DNA of 39,664 bases from positions 1-39,664 of the IMG/VR virus record IMGVR_UViG_2563366953_000005. One strand, written 5' to 3'. Below the pieces are notes generated by a model, which saw only the letters and a program-made list of their open reading frames with translations, was not told the origin of the DNA and did not search any database. Source of the stretch: a virus (Duplodnaviria; Heunggongvirae; Uroviricota; Caudoviricetes). Every line of letters begins with the position of its first letter. Position 1 is the first letter of the stretch. The position numbers and the translations under genes were made by a program. Shown here in pieces: positions 24,185-37,576 of the stretch.

Positions 24185-24252
24185 ATCAATGACTCCGTAC
24201 GCAATTAAATTATTACCAATTTAACCACATATGATTTATTTATCGTAGATAC

Positions 24253-24289
24253 TTGACATTTAATGCACTAATTATTACCTTTCAGGTAA
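24253..24289 (+). promoter_or_regulatory. Sigma70-like promoter with overlapping operator
   Basis: TTGACA at 24253-24258; operator-type palindrome TTACCTTTCAGGTAA at 24275-24289 overlapping the -10 region; points toward the tRNA unit. Confidence 0.45.
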
Positions 24290-24611
24290 GCAAAGAGTTC
24301 ATTCCGGTTATTAACCTGACTGGCTTGTCGTTAAATTGAACAGGTGGGGTGAGCTTTTATTTTGAGCAGTACGGTGTATGGCACATGCGCCGATAGCGGT
24401 CTGGATACGTTTAAGGGGCACCCTCCCTTGCTCGGGAAAACGAACCAGGTAGCCGGAATGTGCAAGTCGAGCGGTTTTATTCCGCGCACGGGGATTCACC
24501 ATCCCGGCGATTCGGTGTGACACCTCGGAAGAGACGAGGGTGCAACGATGAGAGCATTTATGGAGCCGCGACAAAGTGTGGTGCCTTAACAGGCTAAGTG
24601 CTCTCAGCGTT

Positions 24612-24688
24612 GTGGCATTAGCTCAGTTGGACAGAGCAACCGCCTTCTAAGCGGTTGGTCGCAGGTTCGAATCCTGCATGCCACGCCA
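24612..24688 (+). tRNA. tRNA-Arg (anticodon UCU)
   Basis: 77 nt; 7-bp acceptor stem GTGGCAT/ATGCCAC, D-arm GCTC-AGTTGGACA-GAGC, anticodon stem ACCGC/GCGGT with loop CTTCTAA (anticodon TCT), T-arm GCAGG-TTCGAAT-CCTGC, discriminator G and encoded CCA. Confidence 0.85.
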
Positions 24689-24731: not shown

Positions 24732-24775
24732 GGCGGTGATGGTTTCCCTTGAAGGACTATCACCGCCCTTTTTAC
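24732..24775 (+). terminator. Terminator downstream of tRNA-Arg
   Basis: Stem ggcggtgat (24732-24740) pairs with atcaccgcc (24759-24767), followed by cttttt. Confidence 0.55.
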
Positions 24776-24851
24776 AGCAGGACGCCATTGCGATGACTTC
24801 ATGCTGTAAACCAGTACAGCCACGGAAGGCATAACTCATTGCTTCCAGTTC

Positions 24852-24875
24852 GCCCGGTTCGCCGGGCATTTTTTT
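24852..24875 (+). terminator. UUCG-tetraloop hairpin plus T7 tract abutting the RBS of the next gene
   Basis: gcccgg-ttcg-ccgggc then a ttttttt; the SD aaggtgag starts 1 nt after the T tract. Confidence 0.55.
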
Positions 24876-24886
24876 AAGGTGAGATT

Positions 24887-25243
24887 ATGAACGACCAGCA
24901 AATCGAAAAAGAAATCGTTGAGAAAGGCCAAACCGCTCCGCGAGTTACGCCTCAATATATCGAAAGCATCATTCTTGAAGAGCATTTCTTTACTGCTTAT
25001 GACGGCATTCGTGCTGCCAATATGGGCGTTGGCGATTCATGGACAGCGCATAAATCTACAGACCTCCTGACTTTCTGCGTACTGGTGCTGAAGAATGGCT
25101 TCACCGTCACCGGAGAGAGCGCCTGTGCAAGCCCGGAAAACTTTGATGCAGAAATTGGTCGGAAGATTGCCCGGCAGAATGCTGTAAACAAAATCTGGAC
25201 GCTCGAAGGTTACTTGCTGAAGCAGAAGCTAAGCGAGCAATAA
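24887..25243 (+). CDS. Orphan small phage protein of unknown function
   Basis: 118 aa; ATG with strong SD aaggtgag; plus-strand gene between terL and the tRNA, antisense to the late operon; followed by a terminator. Confidence 0.6.
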   Translation: MNDQQIEKEIVEKGQTAPRVTPQYIESIILEEHFFTAYDGIRAANMGVGDSWTAHKSTDLLTFCVLVLKNGFTVTGESACASPENFDAEIGRKIARQNAVNKIWTLEGYLLKQKLSEQ

Positions 25244-25247
25244 CACC

Positions 25248-25259
25248 GTGACATGTCAC
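25248..25259. repeat. Palindrome GTGACATGTCAC (copy 2 of 3)
   Basis: Perfect 12-bp palindrome 5 bp after the stop of the 24887-25243 gene. Confidence 0.45.
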
Positions 25260-25263
25260 AAAC

Positions 25264-25290
25264 AGCCAGCCGATGAGCTGGCTTTGTTTT
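25264..25290 (+). terminator. Rho-independent terminator
   Basis: agccagc-cgatga-gctggct followed by ttgtttt. Confidence 0.6.
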
Positions 25291-25333: not shown

Positions 25334-26809
25334 TTAAGCATAGGGATCGTAATCTGTGATGGCCTTGCCTTGCTGGTTATGTTTCCCGGGAATTCGCAGG
25401 CGCTTCGACACAGGGAAAGCAAACGTCAGCAGTAGCGCATCGCCTTTACCAGGCGAACGCCCAAGTCGTTCTTTGATATCTTCCTTCGGTTCGATAACGA
25501 TTTTACCATCCACGCGAACTTTGTACTCTGCCGCCGACAGATCGTCCGCTGTTTCCTGGTCATCCAGCATCCCGCCCAACCTCAGCCATGTCTTGCATGA
25601 GTTGAACATCTCCCCGCGCTTGTTGAGCATCTGAGGGTCAGTTGACGCACCACCGAACGGAACAAGTTGCCATGTACGTCCCCAGCCATCACCGATTGAC
25701 TTCAAACCGGTTCCGTAACCGAAGTCGATGAATACCGCGTCAGCCTGATACTGGTCTTCAAAGTCAGCGATGCGCTTCGCCATAATCAGATCGTCGGTGG
25801 TCTTGTTGCCAGTCCACAGCACCTTACTATGCAACCCCTGCCGCAGGTATATCACCGCGTCATCAACGCCTGAATATGCCGGGTCAACACCGATTATCAC
25901 CGGAGCATGTGCCACCTGCGCAGCAGTTACCACCCGTTTCATTGCCTCATCAGTAAGACCGGTAGGGATAAACTGCAATTCAGATGCATCAGGGAATATG
26001 CCGCGCACACGGATTTTAACGAAGTCGCTATCTTCCCCGTAGTCATCAACCCATTTCTGCAACTGCTGTTTGTTAGTGCCTTCCACCGTCCGGCTGTCAA
26101 TCTGCGCAGTTTTCCAGCGGTGTTTATATTTGCGGAAACATTCGCGGAAACGCCCGGTGTTACGTGTAGGGTTTCCGAACGCCACCCAGATAATCTCAGT
26201 GTCTTCGTCCGTTAGCGCACCCTCGGCAACTTCCCACACCAGATCCGCAATGTTCGACGCTTCATCAAATACCACGATGATGCGTTTACGCTCGTTGTGT
26301 AGTCCGGCGAATGCCTCAGTGTTGTGCTCAGACCAGGGGATTGCGTCAGCTCGCCACCGCTTGTCGTGCCCAGGATCATTGCTGTACATCGCGGTAGCGG
26401 TACAGGTAAACCAGTCTTTCGTGATAGCAAAGTTCGACCACTTGATAATTTCCGGCCAGGTCTTCGTTCGTAGCTGGTTGTCGGTGTTGGCGGTCACCAC
26501 GACCTTACAATCCTCGCAAGTGGACATGCCCCAGTTGATCAGCATTGAGATGAATGCGGATTTACCAATACCGTGACCAGAAGCGCGTGCCAGCATAAGC
26601 GGCTGATAGCGCGTCTCTGGATTCTGCAGGTGATCACGTATCTCTCGGAACGCATCAGCCTGCCACTGACGTGGGCCGGTAGCATGTGCCAGTTCAGTCC
26701 CCTCTTCCCCCCACGGGAACGCATAGAGGGCATAGCCAAGAGGATCATGAGTGAATCCGGCAATATCCTCGATCAACTGTTCTTCAGGAGATAACGCTGC
26801 ATCTGTCAC
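25334..26809 (-). CDS. Terminase large subunit
   Basis: 491 aa; Walker-A-like ATPase motif (ASGHGIGKSAF) in the N-terminal domain and an acidic nuclease-type C-terminal domain; 4-bp overlap with the upstream small-subunit gene. Confidence 0.85.
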   Translation of the reverse strand: MTDAALSPEEQLIEDIAGFTHDPLGYALYAFPWGEEGTELAHATGPRQWQADAFREIRDHLQNPETRYQPLMLARASGHGIGKSAFISMLINWGMSTCEDCKVVVTANTDNQLRTKTWPEIIKWSNFAITKDWFTCTATAMYSNDPGHDKRWRADAIPWSEHNTEAFAGLHNERKRIIVVFDEASNIADLVWEVAEGALTDEDTEIIWVAFGNPTRNTGRFRECFRKYKHRWKTAQIDSRTVEGTNKQQLQKWVDDYGEDSDFVKIRVRGIFPDASELQFIPTGLTDEAMKRVVTAAQVAHAPVIIGVDPAYSGVDDAVIYLRQGLHSKVLWTGNKTTDDLIMAKRIADFEDQYQADAVFIDFGYGTGLKSIGDGWGRTWQLVPFGGASTDPQMLNKRGEMFNSCKTWLRLGGMLDDQETADDLSAAEYKVRVDGKIVIEPKEDIKERLGRSPGKGDALLLTFAFPVSKRLRIPGKHNQQGKAITDYDPYA

Positions 26810-27402
26810 TGATTACCACCCTGGCGTTCTTTGAGTCGCTTCCTGGCTGCTGCTATGCGATCTGCAATTGTCACATTCACATTAACATCCAGGCGTTCTT
26901 TAAACGCGTTAACATCAACATGCTTACCAATCAGCTCAAGGTTCTTCACCTTGTCAGGCCATTTAATTTTTTTGAGGATTGTCTCTATCGAATCCTCGTT
27001 CATGTTCATGATGGTCGATGACAGATCAAAGCCGCTAAGCGTAGTGCGCCATATTTTCGGCCACTCGCGGATTGGCTTAAGGCTCCCATCGTCGTTGAGG
27101 ATGTCGATCACGTCCATCTGGTCGATCTCCACCAGGCGCATAAGAACGTAATCGGCACTGACGCGCATTCGTTTGTTGCGTTCCTCCATTAGCTCGGCAA
27201 TCCGTTTCTGAATGCGTTCATCGCGCATCATAACACTGGCTTTAACTGCCGCTGTATTTGGAGAGAATCCTGCGTTAATCGCTGCCTGAGTCTGGTTTTC
27301 AGGCGTTTTGATGTATGACTGGCAATAAGCCTCCTGCATTGCTGTTAGTGGCTTAAATTGCGTTGATTTGCGTTTATAGGTTTTAGGTTCAGCAGGCATC
27401 AT
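26806..27402 (-). CDS. Terminase small subunit
   Basis: About 198 aa from the ATG at 27402 (the track ORF starts at an upstream TTG at 27480); HTH-like N-terminal region (TQAAINAGFSPNTAAVKASVMM) typical of small terminase subunits; exact start uncertain. Confidence 0.65.
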   Translation of the reverse strand: MMPAEPKTYKRKSTQFKPLTAMQEAYCQSYIKTPENQTQAAINAGFSPNTAAVKASVMMRDERIQKRIAELMEERNKRMRVSADYVLMRLVEIDQMDVIDILNDDGSLKPIREWPKIWRTTLSGFDLSSTIMNMNEDSIETILKKIKWPDKVKNLELIGKHVDVNAFKERLDVNVNVTIADRIAAARKRLKERQGGNQ

Positions 27403-27434
27403 AACCACCGTGGTAATAGTTACCATTGTGGTAA
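27402..27434. promoter_or_regulatory. Tandem operator-like palindromes at the terS start
   Basis: TAACCACCGTGGTAA (27402-27416) and TTACCATTGTGGTAA (27420-27434), both of TTACC-N5-GGTAA type. Confidence 0.4.
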
Positions 27435-27445
27435 TAGTACCATGC

Positions 27446-27471
27446 AAAATAAAGCCGCCATAGTTGGCGGC
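27446..27471 (-). terminator. Candidate terminator upstream of the late operon
   Basis: On the minus strand: gccgcca-acta-tggcggc followed by tttatttt. Confidence 0.4.
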
Positions 27472-27512
27472 AGTATTCAAAACCCATCAAATTCATCATG
27501 CATAATCTACTC

Positions 27513-27524
27513 GTGACATGTCAC
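27513..27524. repeat. Palindrome GTGACATGTCAC (copy 3 of 3)
   Basis: Perfect 12-bp palindrome between the 27521-27874 gene and the terminator/operators upstream of terS. Confidence 0.45.
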
Positions 27525-27874
27525 ACTATTAATTTCGTTTCATGCCAGCCTTTAGTCACCCAGCATTGCGAGTCACCATTACACGGGCATGAATTTACAG
27601 GAACTCTCTCGCCGCACTTACCGCAACGTTTTCTGCTGATCGATTTTATACGCCCGTGCACGCGTACATCATCCTGGCGGATCAGTAACGCTATATACTC
27701 ACCAAATTCGTAAGGCGCACGCCCGGGGCGACGAGTGGCACAGTTACGCTCCAGCATTTCAATTTCCTGAGCATCAAGCACAATCTCCAGCTTACGCACA
27801 CCAGATGCAGCTTGTCTGGCTCTCTGAGCGGCTTTGCGCTCTGCTGCTGCCTTAGCCATTACCATATCCACCAA
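27521..27874 (-). CDS. Small DNA-binding/zinc-ribbon protein (candidate late-gene regulator)
   Basis: 117 aa; basic N-terminal region (AKAAAERKAAQRARQAASGVRK), C-terminal Cys cluster CGKCGERVPVNSCPCNGDSQC; last early gene, directly upstream of the late control region. Confidence 0.45.
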   Translation of the reverse strand: MVDMVMAKAAAERKAAQRARQAASGVRKLEIVLDAQEIEMLERNCATRRPGRAPYEFGEYIALLIRQDDVRVHGRIKSISRKRCGKCGERVPVNSCPCNGDSQCWVTKGWHETKLIV

Positions 27875-31283: not shown

Positions 31284-31286
31284 GAT

Positions 31287-31363
31287 TTACCTCTGAGGTA
31301 ATTAAAAACCACATAAGACACTAGATCAATAGATTTTAGAATATTTTATTACCCGACAGGTAA
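31287..31363. promoter_or_regulatory. Pair of operator-like palindromes in the P-to-nin intergenic region
   Basis: TTACCTCTGAGGTAA (31287-31301) and TTACCCGACAGGTAA (31349-31363) separated by AT-rich sequence. Confidence 0.45.
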
Positions 31364-31400
31364 TTATTGAGGCGTAAAAAAATGCGCTATCGCGCTGGTA

Positions 31401-33630: not shown

Positions 33631-33693
33631 TCACCCATAAGGTAACAAAAATCAAGGATAGTTACCTGTGGGGTGCATTTACCTGTTGGGTAA
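33631..33693. promoter_or_regulatory. Immunity-region operator cluster (three TTACC-N5-GGTAA-type sites)
   Basis: TCACCCATAAGGTAA (33631-33645, 1 mismatch), TTACCTGTGGGGTGC (33662-33676, 2 mismatches), TTACCTGTTGGGTAA (33679-33693, perfect), between divergent Cro-like and repressor-like genes. Confidence 0.55.
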
Positions 33694-33748
33694 TATTGCT
33701 TTAAATTGAATCATCTACTGATTCATATATGAGGCGATTTTCCAGAAA

Positions 33749-34333
33749 ATGAAAAGTATCCAGGACGTCCGCAGGCAAAATCTCAACGACTTGATCGACC
33801 GTGAATTCAATGGTGTTCAGACGCGGATGGCAGAAAAACTTGGAACTCAGGCAAATCTGGTAAACCGCTGGGCTCTTGGCAAGAAGGTTATCGGCGACCA
33901 GGTTGCGCGAAAAATTGAAGCTGCCGCCAATAAACCCCGTAACTGGCTTGATATCGATCGCTCGCTTTCTCAGGAAGGTTTTCAGCCTGTCGGCCCAAGC
34001 GACATTGGTCAGCTGGCGGCTCACAACCTGGAACGCTGGATGAGCGAAAGCCGCGACCTTTCAACGCAGGGAAAACTTCACCGCGCATCCGGCGTCGCCC
34101 AGGTGACAATCAGTCGCCTGTTAAACAATGAGGTCAGCGTTTCCATTTCCACCCTGGAGAATGTTGCATCCGCATTCGGGCGTCACGGATATGAACTACT
34201 GATTCACCCGCACGACCCTGCGACTATCAACTATGACCGCTCACGCTACGCATTGTTACCCGAAACCGAGAAAGCAAAGATCGAAAGTTACATTGAATTT
34301 GTCATCAACCAGAACGAAAAAAGCAAACAATAA
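33749..34333 (+). CDS. Prophage repressor-like protein with two HTH-like regions and no recognisable S24 peptidase domain
   Basis: 194 aa; N-terminal HTH (TRMAEKLGTQANLVNRWALGKKVIGDQVARKIE) and a second HTH-like segment (LHRASGVAQVTISRLLNNE); no Ala-Gly/GDSM/Lys signature of LexA-type autocleavage; position equivalent to cI. Confidence 0.55.
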   Translation: MKSIQDVRRQNLNDLIDREFNGVQTRMAEKLGTQANLVNRWALGKKVIGDQVARKIEAAANKPRNWLDIDRSLSQEGFQPVGPSDIGQLAAHNLERWMSESRDLSTQGKLHRASGVAQVTISRLLNNEVSVSISTLENVASAFGRHGYELLIHPHDPATINYDRSRYALLPETEKAKIESYIEFVINQNEKSKQ

Positions 34334-34390
34334 AACTATATTTTTCAGTAAGTAAGCCGCCTCATGGCGGCTTTTTTATTGCCAGATAGA

Positions 34391-34467
34391 TTACCTTACG
34401 GGTAATTTTTTTAACTCATATCTATTGACACCAAACCAAATAAGCATAATTATTACCTCAACGGTAA
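34391..34467 (+). promoter_or_regulatory. PL-like promoter with two operators
   Basis: TTACCTTACGGGTAA (34391-34405), TTGACA (34425-34430), TTACCTCAACGGTAA (34453-34467) overlapping the -10/+1 region; drives the rightward recombination operon. Confidence 0.5.
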
Positions 34468-34486
34468 CAGACCGAGGTAACAAGTT

Positions 34487-37276: not shown

Positions 37277-37576
37277 GTGAGAAAGTTAAGCCGACTTGAA
37301 AAATATCACATGAATAAGGTTTCAATGCGCAGTCCGTCAAAGATTGTCGCCGTTACTCCTGCGGCGATAGAGATCGAAAAACGCGCGATTGAAAGAGAGA
37401 AAAAAGGGCAGTTCCGCATTGCCGCTCACCTTTGGCTTCAGTGTATGGATGTTGCTTCTGGTGATGTTGAGCGTGCAAGGATCGCGGTTCGCAGGGACCA
37501 ATGTATCACAAAAGGTAACGGCCTTCGCCGTGGAGACTATAGCGGTATAGGATGTTGCGGGGTGGTTTATGACTAA
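37277..37576 (+). CDS. Hypothetical protein
   Basis: 99 aa starting at GTG; overlaps the methyltransferase start; no motif recognised. Confidence 0.35.
   Translation: MRKLSRLEKYHMNKVSMRSPSKIVAVTPAAIEIEKRAIEREKKGQFRIAAHLWLQCMDVASGDVERARIAVRRDQCITKGNGLRRGDYSGIGCCGVVYD

Follow-up and report, generated by a model that had tools for sequence, protein, structure and literature searches.

A ribbon-helix-helix protein family tied to an invariant palindrome at the early/late junction of an epsilon15-like temperate phage

Here, we analyzed the early/late control junction of a temperate podophage whose near-complete genome constitutes IMG/VR record IMGVR_UViG_2563366953_000005 (39,664 nucleotides (nt); this whole 39.7-kb stretch is hereafter called the window), and in particular a gene located directly upstream of terS that encodes a 112-amino acid (aa) protein and ends in a 12-bp palindrome. 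The phage belongs to the genus Uetakevirus, in the group of epsilon15, phiV10 and TL-2011b, to which the junction region is 97-98% identical. On the minus strand, the gene order is cro-like, O-like, P-like, RusA-like, Ead/Ea22-like, DUF551, the gene for the 112-aa protein, terS and terL, followed, 3′ of terL, by the structural genes, the tailspike gene and the lysis genes; the repressor gene (33749-34333, plus strand) is followed by a leftward recombination operon. The gene for the small terminase subunit, terS (26806-27402, minus strand; Pfam Terminase_2, E 1e-29; phrog_51), is the first late gene. The original prediction, made from the letters of the sequence, of a late-operon control region is borne out to the extent that this is the early/late junction. 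Four separable elements make up the junction, namely, the last early gene, its palindrome, a terminator, and terS with its repressor operators.

The 112-aa protein and its palindromic site

The open reading frame (ORF) at 27874-27521 on the minus strand exists as originally described, but its proposed 117-aa product is too long: translation almost certainly starts at the ATG at 27859, given that phiV10p55 and most of the listed homologues are 112 aa long and have an equivalent start, so that the gene occupies positions 27521-27859. The product belongs to the epsilon15 gp49/phiV10p55/N15 gp46 family (phrog_536, labelled simply 'transcriptional regulator'). It has no sequence match in Pfam, NCBIfam or the PDB, and neither Pfam nor NCBIfam includes a model covering the family. 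The cysteine cluster noted in the original prediction is real and consists of C79, C82, C91, C93, C99 and H106; C79, C82 and C99 are invariant across the wide family, with the fourth cysteine situated between them, and the C-terminal domain that contains the cluster probably binds zinc. Structure prediction, which had been proposed as a check on the nature of the protein, was informative: an AlphaFold model built from a 66-sequence alignment (pLDDT 88) consists of a basic helix (residues 5-18), an extended segment, two helices (30-42 and 52-74), and a C-terminal part with a Cys knuckle and a short helix (100-107). The strand-helix-helix arrangement that defines the ribbon-helix-helix (MetJ/Arc/CopG) superfamily is present, and the N-terminal helix is rich in Arg and Lys, with R13 invariant. 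Taken together with the linked palindrome described below, these features support the assignment of the 112-aa protein as a DNA-binding protein of the regulator type.

Compared with the known ribbon-helix-helix regulators, such as Arc, Mnt of P22, MetJ, CopG, omega and AmrZ, the protein contains two additional elements, the basic N-terminal helix and the C-terminal Cys cluster, and its putative site lies at the 3′ end of its own gene rather than in a promoter. The Cys domain shows weak profile similarity to the C4 zinc fingers of DksA/TraR, proteins that bind the secondary channel of RNA polymerase (E 0.02-0.04; hhalign 74%); the likeness extends over a long helix and a CxxCGxxhP motif, and the criterion for such a finger is CxxC-N17-CxxC. 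The family is large, comprising 652 clusters at 90% identity and 181 at 50%. Its members are found in phages of many types, podo-, myo-, sipho-, P2-like and Mu-like, and among the host genera are Escherichia, Salmonella, Klebsiella, Yersinia, Pectobacterium, Vibrio and Aeromonas; the named members include N15 gene 46 and ZF40 gp22. In the Mu-like subfamily (loci L126-L145, IMG/VR contigs), the protein carries a C-terminal extension and, at least in part of this subfamily, as at locus L141, the next gene encodes a GemA homologue.

The palindrome at the end of the gene (site 1; GTGACATGTCAC, 27513-27524; in its 14-bp form, TGTGACATGTCACA) includes the TGA stop codon of the gene (27523-27521). 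The consensus, GTGAC-N2-GTCAC, can be read as two GTSAC half-sites 7 bp apart. The exact 12-mer, of which the original prediction had reported the copy at the junction, occurs three times in the window, at 27513, 25248 and 8030, against an expectation of about 0.03 (by chance, 0.03-0.05 copies are expected per genome). Epsilon15 has the same three sites in equivalent places, ZF40 also has three copies, and N15 has three copies of its own variant, GTGACTGGTCAC.

The position of the palindrome relative to the gene follows a simple rule. Among 31 species-level loci from Enterobacterales, GTGAC-NN-GTCAC begins within the TGA of the regulator gene itself in 25 and 2 nt later in one; the remaining five lack the palindrome, and there the 3′ end of the gene appears truncated or divergent. 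The association extends to ZF40, N15 and Yersinia P2-like phages, in which the proteins are 35-64% identical; the palindrome is 2 nt past the stop in ZF40 and 6 nt past it in lambdoid prophages. In subfamilies near 35% identity, it either overlaps the TGA or lies 2-20 nt past it. In the Mu-like subfamily, where the gene lies upstream of gemA, the palindrome, GTGACCGGTCAC, is found within the 3′ coding sequence, in frame as Val-Thr-Gly-His. The half-sites do not change, and the central two bases differ by lineage but are constant within a genome; a comparison of this central dinucleotide with the strand residues of the protein was uninformative, the pairing being lineage-specific.

By contrast with the constancy of the half-sites, what follows the palindrome is heterogeneous. 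It persists where the stop codon has shifted and where the downstream DNA is wholly different, and it is followed variously by the terminator-operator-terS arrangement seen here, by a strong terminator at a distance of 7-22 nt, by a ribosome-binding site that serves another gene, or by a LexA-box promoter. In many relatives, the ribosome-binding site of another gene lies within 1-13 nt after the palindrome, and a terminator is found 7-41 nt from many of the own-stop palindromes. In many prophages (L091, L092, L098, L099, L100, L102, L104, L116, L117 and L119), a LexA-box promoter immediately follows the regulator gene and its palindrome and drives a small gene, which is UmuD-like in L091 and otherwise uncharacterised here. 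No conserved promoter was detected around the palindromes when -10 and -35 elements were sought in both orientations at about 40 loci. The position rule, the invariant half-sites and the heterogeneous downstream context together indicate a protein site that travels with the gene, not a part of a promoter or a by-product of coding. The palindrome is likely to be the binding site of the 112-aa protein, and the co-occurrence of the gene and the palindrome across distant phages is the support for the predicted binding of a symmetric or tandem site by a dimer or a dimer of dimers. To our knowledge, neither its spacing nor its sequence resembles the sites of CRP, LexA or LacI-type proteins, so that we rejected its interpretation as the site of a host factor. 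In the Yersinia P2-like phages, a second, imperfect copy or half-site (GTGACGTGTCGT or GCGCGTCAC) is located approximately 20-30 nt downstream of the perfect palindrome (L090, Yersinia phage vB_YenM_56.17, 8468-8530; L116-L120), which suggests cooperative binding.

Because the element is always co-transcribed with the gene and often abuts the next ribosome-binding site or a terminator, it could, in principle, function at the RNA level, forming a hairpin at the cistron's 3′ end that would affect mRNA stability, translational coupling or the efficiency of termination, being bound by the N-terminal helix, which is arginine-rich and carries the invariant R13, or by nothing at all. We consider this highly improbable. 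Such a hairpin would be weak, with at most 4-5 pairs and a loop of 2-4 nt, and one of the N15 copies lies within repA in the strand orientation opposite to that gene; moreover, invariant half-sites with a free central dinucleotide, combined with a ribbon-helix-helix fold, suit the recognition of double-stranded DNA.

The other two copies of the palindrome in the window are located at internal ends of transcription units, each beside a terminator hairpin (0-4 nt away). Site 2 (25248-25259) occupies the gap between two stops, that of terL (25334) and that of a convergent plus-strand gene (25243), and is 4 nt away from the terminator of the latter (25264-25283); both this placement and the adjacency to a terminator recur in most of the Uetakevirus-like loci examined, with stems that differ in sequence but remain paired. 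Site 3 (8030-8041) is situated at the end of the structural operon, the last ORF of which is hydrophobic and 46 aa long (8049-8189, minus strand): it lies 7 nt past the stop of this ORF, with a hairpin (8028-8013) 1 nt further on. In epsilon15, the counterpart of the ORF is gp18, whose stop codon falls inside the palindrome, and a terminator follows after 2 nt. No copy of the palindrome accompanies the terminators that come after the tailspike and lysis genes. In other phages, copies are also found inside genes (ZF40 gp08, the cII-like ZF40 gp12 and N15 repA), and one N15 copy is located upstream of the terminator that precedes the antirepressor operon.

All three sites in the window flank variable slots for accessory genes, and relatives diverge right after the palindrome. 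A role outside transcription could accordingly be envisaged, with the palindrome serving as a cis mark for replication, recombination or packaging, or as a boundary for the exchange of accessory genes; the N15 copy in repA is compatible with this possibility, as is the presence of relaxosome and partition factors among the ribbon-helix-helix proteins. Such a role nevertheless appears improbable to us, given that the sites are tied to cistron ends and terminators and show no consistent tie to an origin, a pac site or attP, and that the family spans phages with unrelated replication and packaging systems.

Several other features of the region around site 2 were recorded. The converging gene (24887-25243, plus strand) is an accessory gene of the Phage_gp49_66 family, located in reverse orientation between terL and the portal unit, and a LexA-like box, CTGT-N8-ACAG, is present at 24804-24819, about 80 nt upstream of it. 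Locus L102 has another palindrome, which overlaps the stop codon of an ORF of 280 aa; directly downstream is a gene whose product resembles, at its N-terminus, that of the Phage_gp49_66-family gene. A tRNA-Arg gene (anticodon TCT; 24612-24688, plus strand) is located among the late genes but is encoded on the other strand, and is followed by two plus-strand terminator-like hairpins (24732-24767 and 24852-24867); an Rfam scan of the window detected nothing but this tRNA.

Terminator, promoter candidates and operators ahead of terS

The terminator described in the original prediction stands. T1 (27446-27471, minus strand), identified by a terminator scan, consists of a hairpin, GCCGCCAACTATGGCGGC (27471-27454), with 7 pairs, 6 of them G-C, and the T-run TTTATTTT (27453-27446). 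It is annotated in the epsilon15 and phiV10 records, is kept in six Uetakeviruses from different genera in which the upstream spacer varies by insertions and deletions, and lies in a region with a folding z-score of -3.8. A G+C-rich hairpin, a U-tract and conservation are thus all present, and T1 is a genuine predicted intrinsic terminator, which closes the rightward early operon. The spacer between the palindrome and T1 contains a remnant (27477-27503, minus strand), retaining only the start and the end, of a 70-aa ORF (phrog_1541); of the 82 close relatives examined, 25 (including L005, L010 and L012) have an intact copy of this ORF here.

The promoter originally placed across the palindrome fares differently. 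Its hexamers, TTAATA (27532-27527) and TAGATT (27509-27504), are present with a 17-nt spacer and match the consensus at 8 of 12 positions, but promoter-like sites in this region are no commoner than in shuffled sequence. The -10 hexamer is not conserved either: its equivalent is TATCGA in epsilon15 and TAGCGA or TTTACG in other genera, and a ribosome-binding site with an ATG stands in its place at the loci of type B, type C, N15 and Pantoea. We therefore rejected this promoter. In the literal model, the palindrome within the spacer of this promoter would act like a Q-binding element, a short transcript would run to the hairpin, and the protein would be loaded at the promoter to permit read-through. 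In addition to the hexamers, a second weak match (GTGACA-18-CATGAT) and a TATAAA located 3 nt past the palindrome in ZF40 could be cited for it. However, the protein lacks Q homology and, in the type B relatives, the 70-aa ORF separates the palindrome from the terminator, so that we regard this model as very unlikely indeed. The palindrome as a site for a classical activator of late promoters was also considered and rejected, because its distance from the operators of the late units varies from about 90 to about 1000 nt.

A different promoter candidate is located past the terminator. Between the T-run of T1 and the first operator, we read from the sequence an extended -10 element, TGGTACTAT (27434-27442, minus strand; TG-n-TAnTAT), in which TG, TA and TAT are invariant and the other positions vary (8 sequence variants). 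The chances that this element is the promoter of terS, with the start point inside the first operator, seem to us about evenly balanced. If it is, terS would be transcribed without any need for read-through of the terminator. The original claim that late transcription requires antitermination through T1 is accordingly not upheld: a conserved extended -10-like element lies past T1, and read-through is not demonstrably needed.

The two operator palindromes originally noted at the terS start were borne out, with slightly revised limits. O1 (ATTACCACAATGGTAAC, 27419-27435) and O2 (ATTACCACGGTGGTTAT, 27401-27417) each have one mismatch to ATTACC-N5-GGTAAT, and O2 extends over the Shine-Dalgarno sequence into the beginning of the terS start codon (ATG, 27402). 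With up to 2 mismatches, this motif has 14 matches in the window against 1.2 expected: there is a pair at terS, another at OL and a third before rusA, OR contributes two sites on the side of the repressor gene that faces cro, and the portal unit, the tailspike gene and the lysis genes are each preceded by one site; three further two-mismatch matches may be due to chance. The site ahead of the portal/structural unit is at 24274-24290, and further operators are located at 7656-7672, 3168-3184, 31348-31364, 31286-31302, 33678-33694, 34390-34406 and 34452-34468. In the epsilon15 record, sites with this motif are annotated as repressor-binding before terS, gp3 and the tailspike gene, with three beside the repressor gene and one before the resolvase gene. 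The prophage repressor, Rep, which is encoded at 33749-34333 (plus strand; phrog_8) and is the predicted binder of O1 and O2, is homologous to the SPC32H repressor (PDB 5d50, E 3.5e-42), which binds paired palindromic sites as a tetramer (PMC9638917). The immunity region and the terS start thus share a palindrome, and a cognate repressor is encoded, as expected of Uetakevirus operators. Given the operator family, the epsilon15 annotation and the SPC32H-repressor homologue, direct control of terS by the prophage repressor, which had been suggested originally, is well supported by these comparisons.

The motif at terS is the one that is spread over the genome and stands ahead of every late unit, so that the repressor would silence the late genes directly, a situation analogous to the stoperators of mycobacteriophage L5. 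The terS pair is unusually tight, 18 bp from centre to centre compared with 62 bp at OL and rusA, and is unusual also in covering the ribosome-binding site and the start codon.

Two further observations concern the other operators. The operator at 7656-7672 is a perfect match. On one side, it faces the tailspike gene; on the other, together with a LexA box, CTGTATATTTATACAG (7711-7726), it precedes a divergently oriented plus-strand gene (7682-8005) with a weak match to an anti-repressor PHROG; this latter gene probably encodes an SOS-controlled antirepressor. A minus-strand motif, CATATGTGGTT(T/A), which is also present in epsilon15, is found at 24222-24233, 7616-7627, 3125-3136 and 31306-31317, approximately 30-45 nt downstream of the operators that precede, respectively, the portal unit, the tailspike gene, the lysis genes and rusA, and could be a part of the late promoters or an activator site.

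Comparison with known systems and mode of action

The layout of the junction recalls that of the lambda Q region: the regulator gene is the last one in the rightward early operon, a DNA site follows immediately, and an intrinsic terminator precedes the late genes. The original prediction that the protein is a Q-analogous late regulator holds to the extent that it appears to be a DNA-binding regulator with a linked palindrome. It has, however, no relation in sequence or fold to Q of the lambda, 82 or 21 types, consisting instead of a ribbon-helix-helix domain and a Cys cluster. There is, furthermore, no conserved sigma-70 late promoter around or next to the palindrome, there are three sites per genome, located at the 3′ ends of cistrons, and the likely terS promoter is downstream of the terminator. 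Moreover, ZF40, N15 and lambdoid prophages encode a homologue as well as a Q-like gene, and in a Yersinia P2-like phage a homologue is accompanied by a gene in the position of Ogr. Thus, considering the lack of homology and of a conserved promoter, the intervening 70-aa ORF in relatives, and the coexistence with dedicated late activators, a Q-like module is not supported here. Nor does it correspond to Ogr/Delta of P2: there is no family match, and the palindromes lie at variable distances, 90-1000 nt, from the late-unit operators, unlike the Ogr site, TGT-N12-ACA, at about -55. In the lambdoid phage Chlobot, a homologue coexists with an N-like gene; the Chlobot copy is annotated in two pieces, and the copies in related prophages differ at otherwise nearly invariant residues, so that the gene looks degenerate in the lambdoid context.

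No homologues of N, Q, Ogr or Mor were identified among the early genes of the window examined with Pfam, NCBIfam, PHROG and the PDB, the gene for the 112-aa protein included. The only other 'activator' encoded in the window is a PerC-like 'transcriptional activator' (37277-37576, plus strand; PF06069, E 6e-7; phrog_868) in the leftward early operon.

The closest precedent for a site in such a position is that of LacI, which, when bound at O3 in the 3′ end of lacI, reportedly acts as a roadblock, yielding stop-less mRNA and tmRNA tagging. In both cases, the operator overlaps the end of the coding sequence of the regulator itself, and the bound protein would halt polymerase ahead of the stop codon; the proteins are unrelated, and for the phage protein this mechanism is suggested by geometry alone. 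Our tentative best explanation, to which we would give somewhat less than even chances, is that the 112-aa protein obstructs RNA polymerase where transcription units end and restricts its own production. The protein would act on elongating RNA polymerase, not at a promoter. When bound to the palindrome, it would stall polymerase approximately 15 nt upstream, before the stop codon is transcribed, and the resulting stop-less mRNAs would limit self-synthesis, as for LacI at O3. The bound protein would also reinforce the terminators at the borders between the early operon, terS-terL, the structural operon and the accessory genes that converge on them. In the lysogen, O1 and O2, which cover the terS ribosome-binding site, the start codon and the start region of the probable promoter, would keep terS off, and the other late units with the same operator would be held off likewise; late transcription would then start at repressor-controlled late promoters, without antitermination. 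We favour this explanation because the sole universal feature of the system is the site overlapping the end of its own gene, which would halt polymerase before the stop; because ribbon-helix-helix proteins are usually repressors; and because a genome with a repressor operator on every unit looks modular and insulated. Such geometry would provide gene-specific negative feedback within a long operon.

Several points weigh against this explanation. Both the binding of the family to its sites and the behaviour of the transcripts are deduced from sequence. In ZF40, a block after gp22 would reduce the expression of the downstream Q gene and, in the type B relatives, N15 and the Mu-like phages, a block would shut off whichever gene comes next in the operon. 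The conservation of TGGTACTAT may reflect an operator half-site for the repressor instead of a promoter. The weak DksA/TraR likeness of the Cys domain could signify modification of polymerase, not a passive block. Finally, the three palindromes are found only at internal boundaries that rightward transcription must cross, a distribution that fits read-through at least equally well, and the absence of any other recognisable late regulator in the window makes a positive role attractive.

These last points lead to the opposite possibility, namely, that the protein joins elongating RNA polymerase at palindromes within the transcription unit and confers resistance to the terminators that follow. 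Early transcription would then cross T1 into terS-terL and, subsequently, the later boundaries. The logic would resemble that of Q, N or RfaH, except that the site would be duplex DNA where a cistron ends, and not a promoter or an element in RNA. The gene is the last early one, and site 1 lies 22-42 nt before the only strong terminator ahead of the late genes; there is no site at the terminal terminators. In ZF40, sites are found upstream of Q and also inside the early blocks, a few hundred nt from the beginning of the leftward and of the rightward block, in positions that resemble those of nut sites, and the N15 site ahead of the antirepressor operon likewise precedes a terminator; a DksA/TraR-like Cys domain would also be in place in such a factor. 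At site 2, however, the hairpin precedes the palindrome in the late direction, each late unit is equipped with a repressor operator, and probably also a promoter, of its own, and nothing in this model requires a site at the end of the gene itself. We know of no ribbon-helix-helix protein that antiterminates. All considered, we view a read-through factor as a possible but rather unlikely solution.

Significance for temperate phages

The terminator, the operators and the fold class of the protein are ordinary, whereas the family, its invariant palindrome and the own-stop rule are absent from the literature searched and from the family libraries. The literature that we searched contains nothing on the gp49/gp46 family, its palindrome or late control in Uetakevirus, and a late-gene regulator of epsilon15-like phages was not found in the literature and annotation searched. 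The junction map presented here reveals a repressor that appears to touch every late unit, a probable terS promoter, and an unstudied family tied to an invariant 12-bp site. The epsilon15-like phages include O157 typing and reporter phages as well as serotype-converting phages of Salmonella.

It is conceivable, if on balance doubtful, that the gp49/gp46 family represents a new class of elongation regulators that are loaded onto RNA polymerase, or block it, at a duplex DNA palindrome located in the stop codon of their own gene and at a small number of other cistron ends. If so, the family would determine, at the operon boundaries of temperate phages as diverse as the podo-, myo-, sipho-, P2-like and Mu-like ones, whether transcription terminates or reads through. 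In the positive form, it would be the missing late switch of the epsilon15-like phages, a counterpart of Q, N and RfaH that uses a DNA site, and a DNA-loaded elongation factor, if proven, would be categorically new. The rule that places the site at the end of its own gene is unusual, and an explanation of it would probably uncover a new form of transcription control at the ends of operons.

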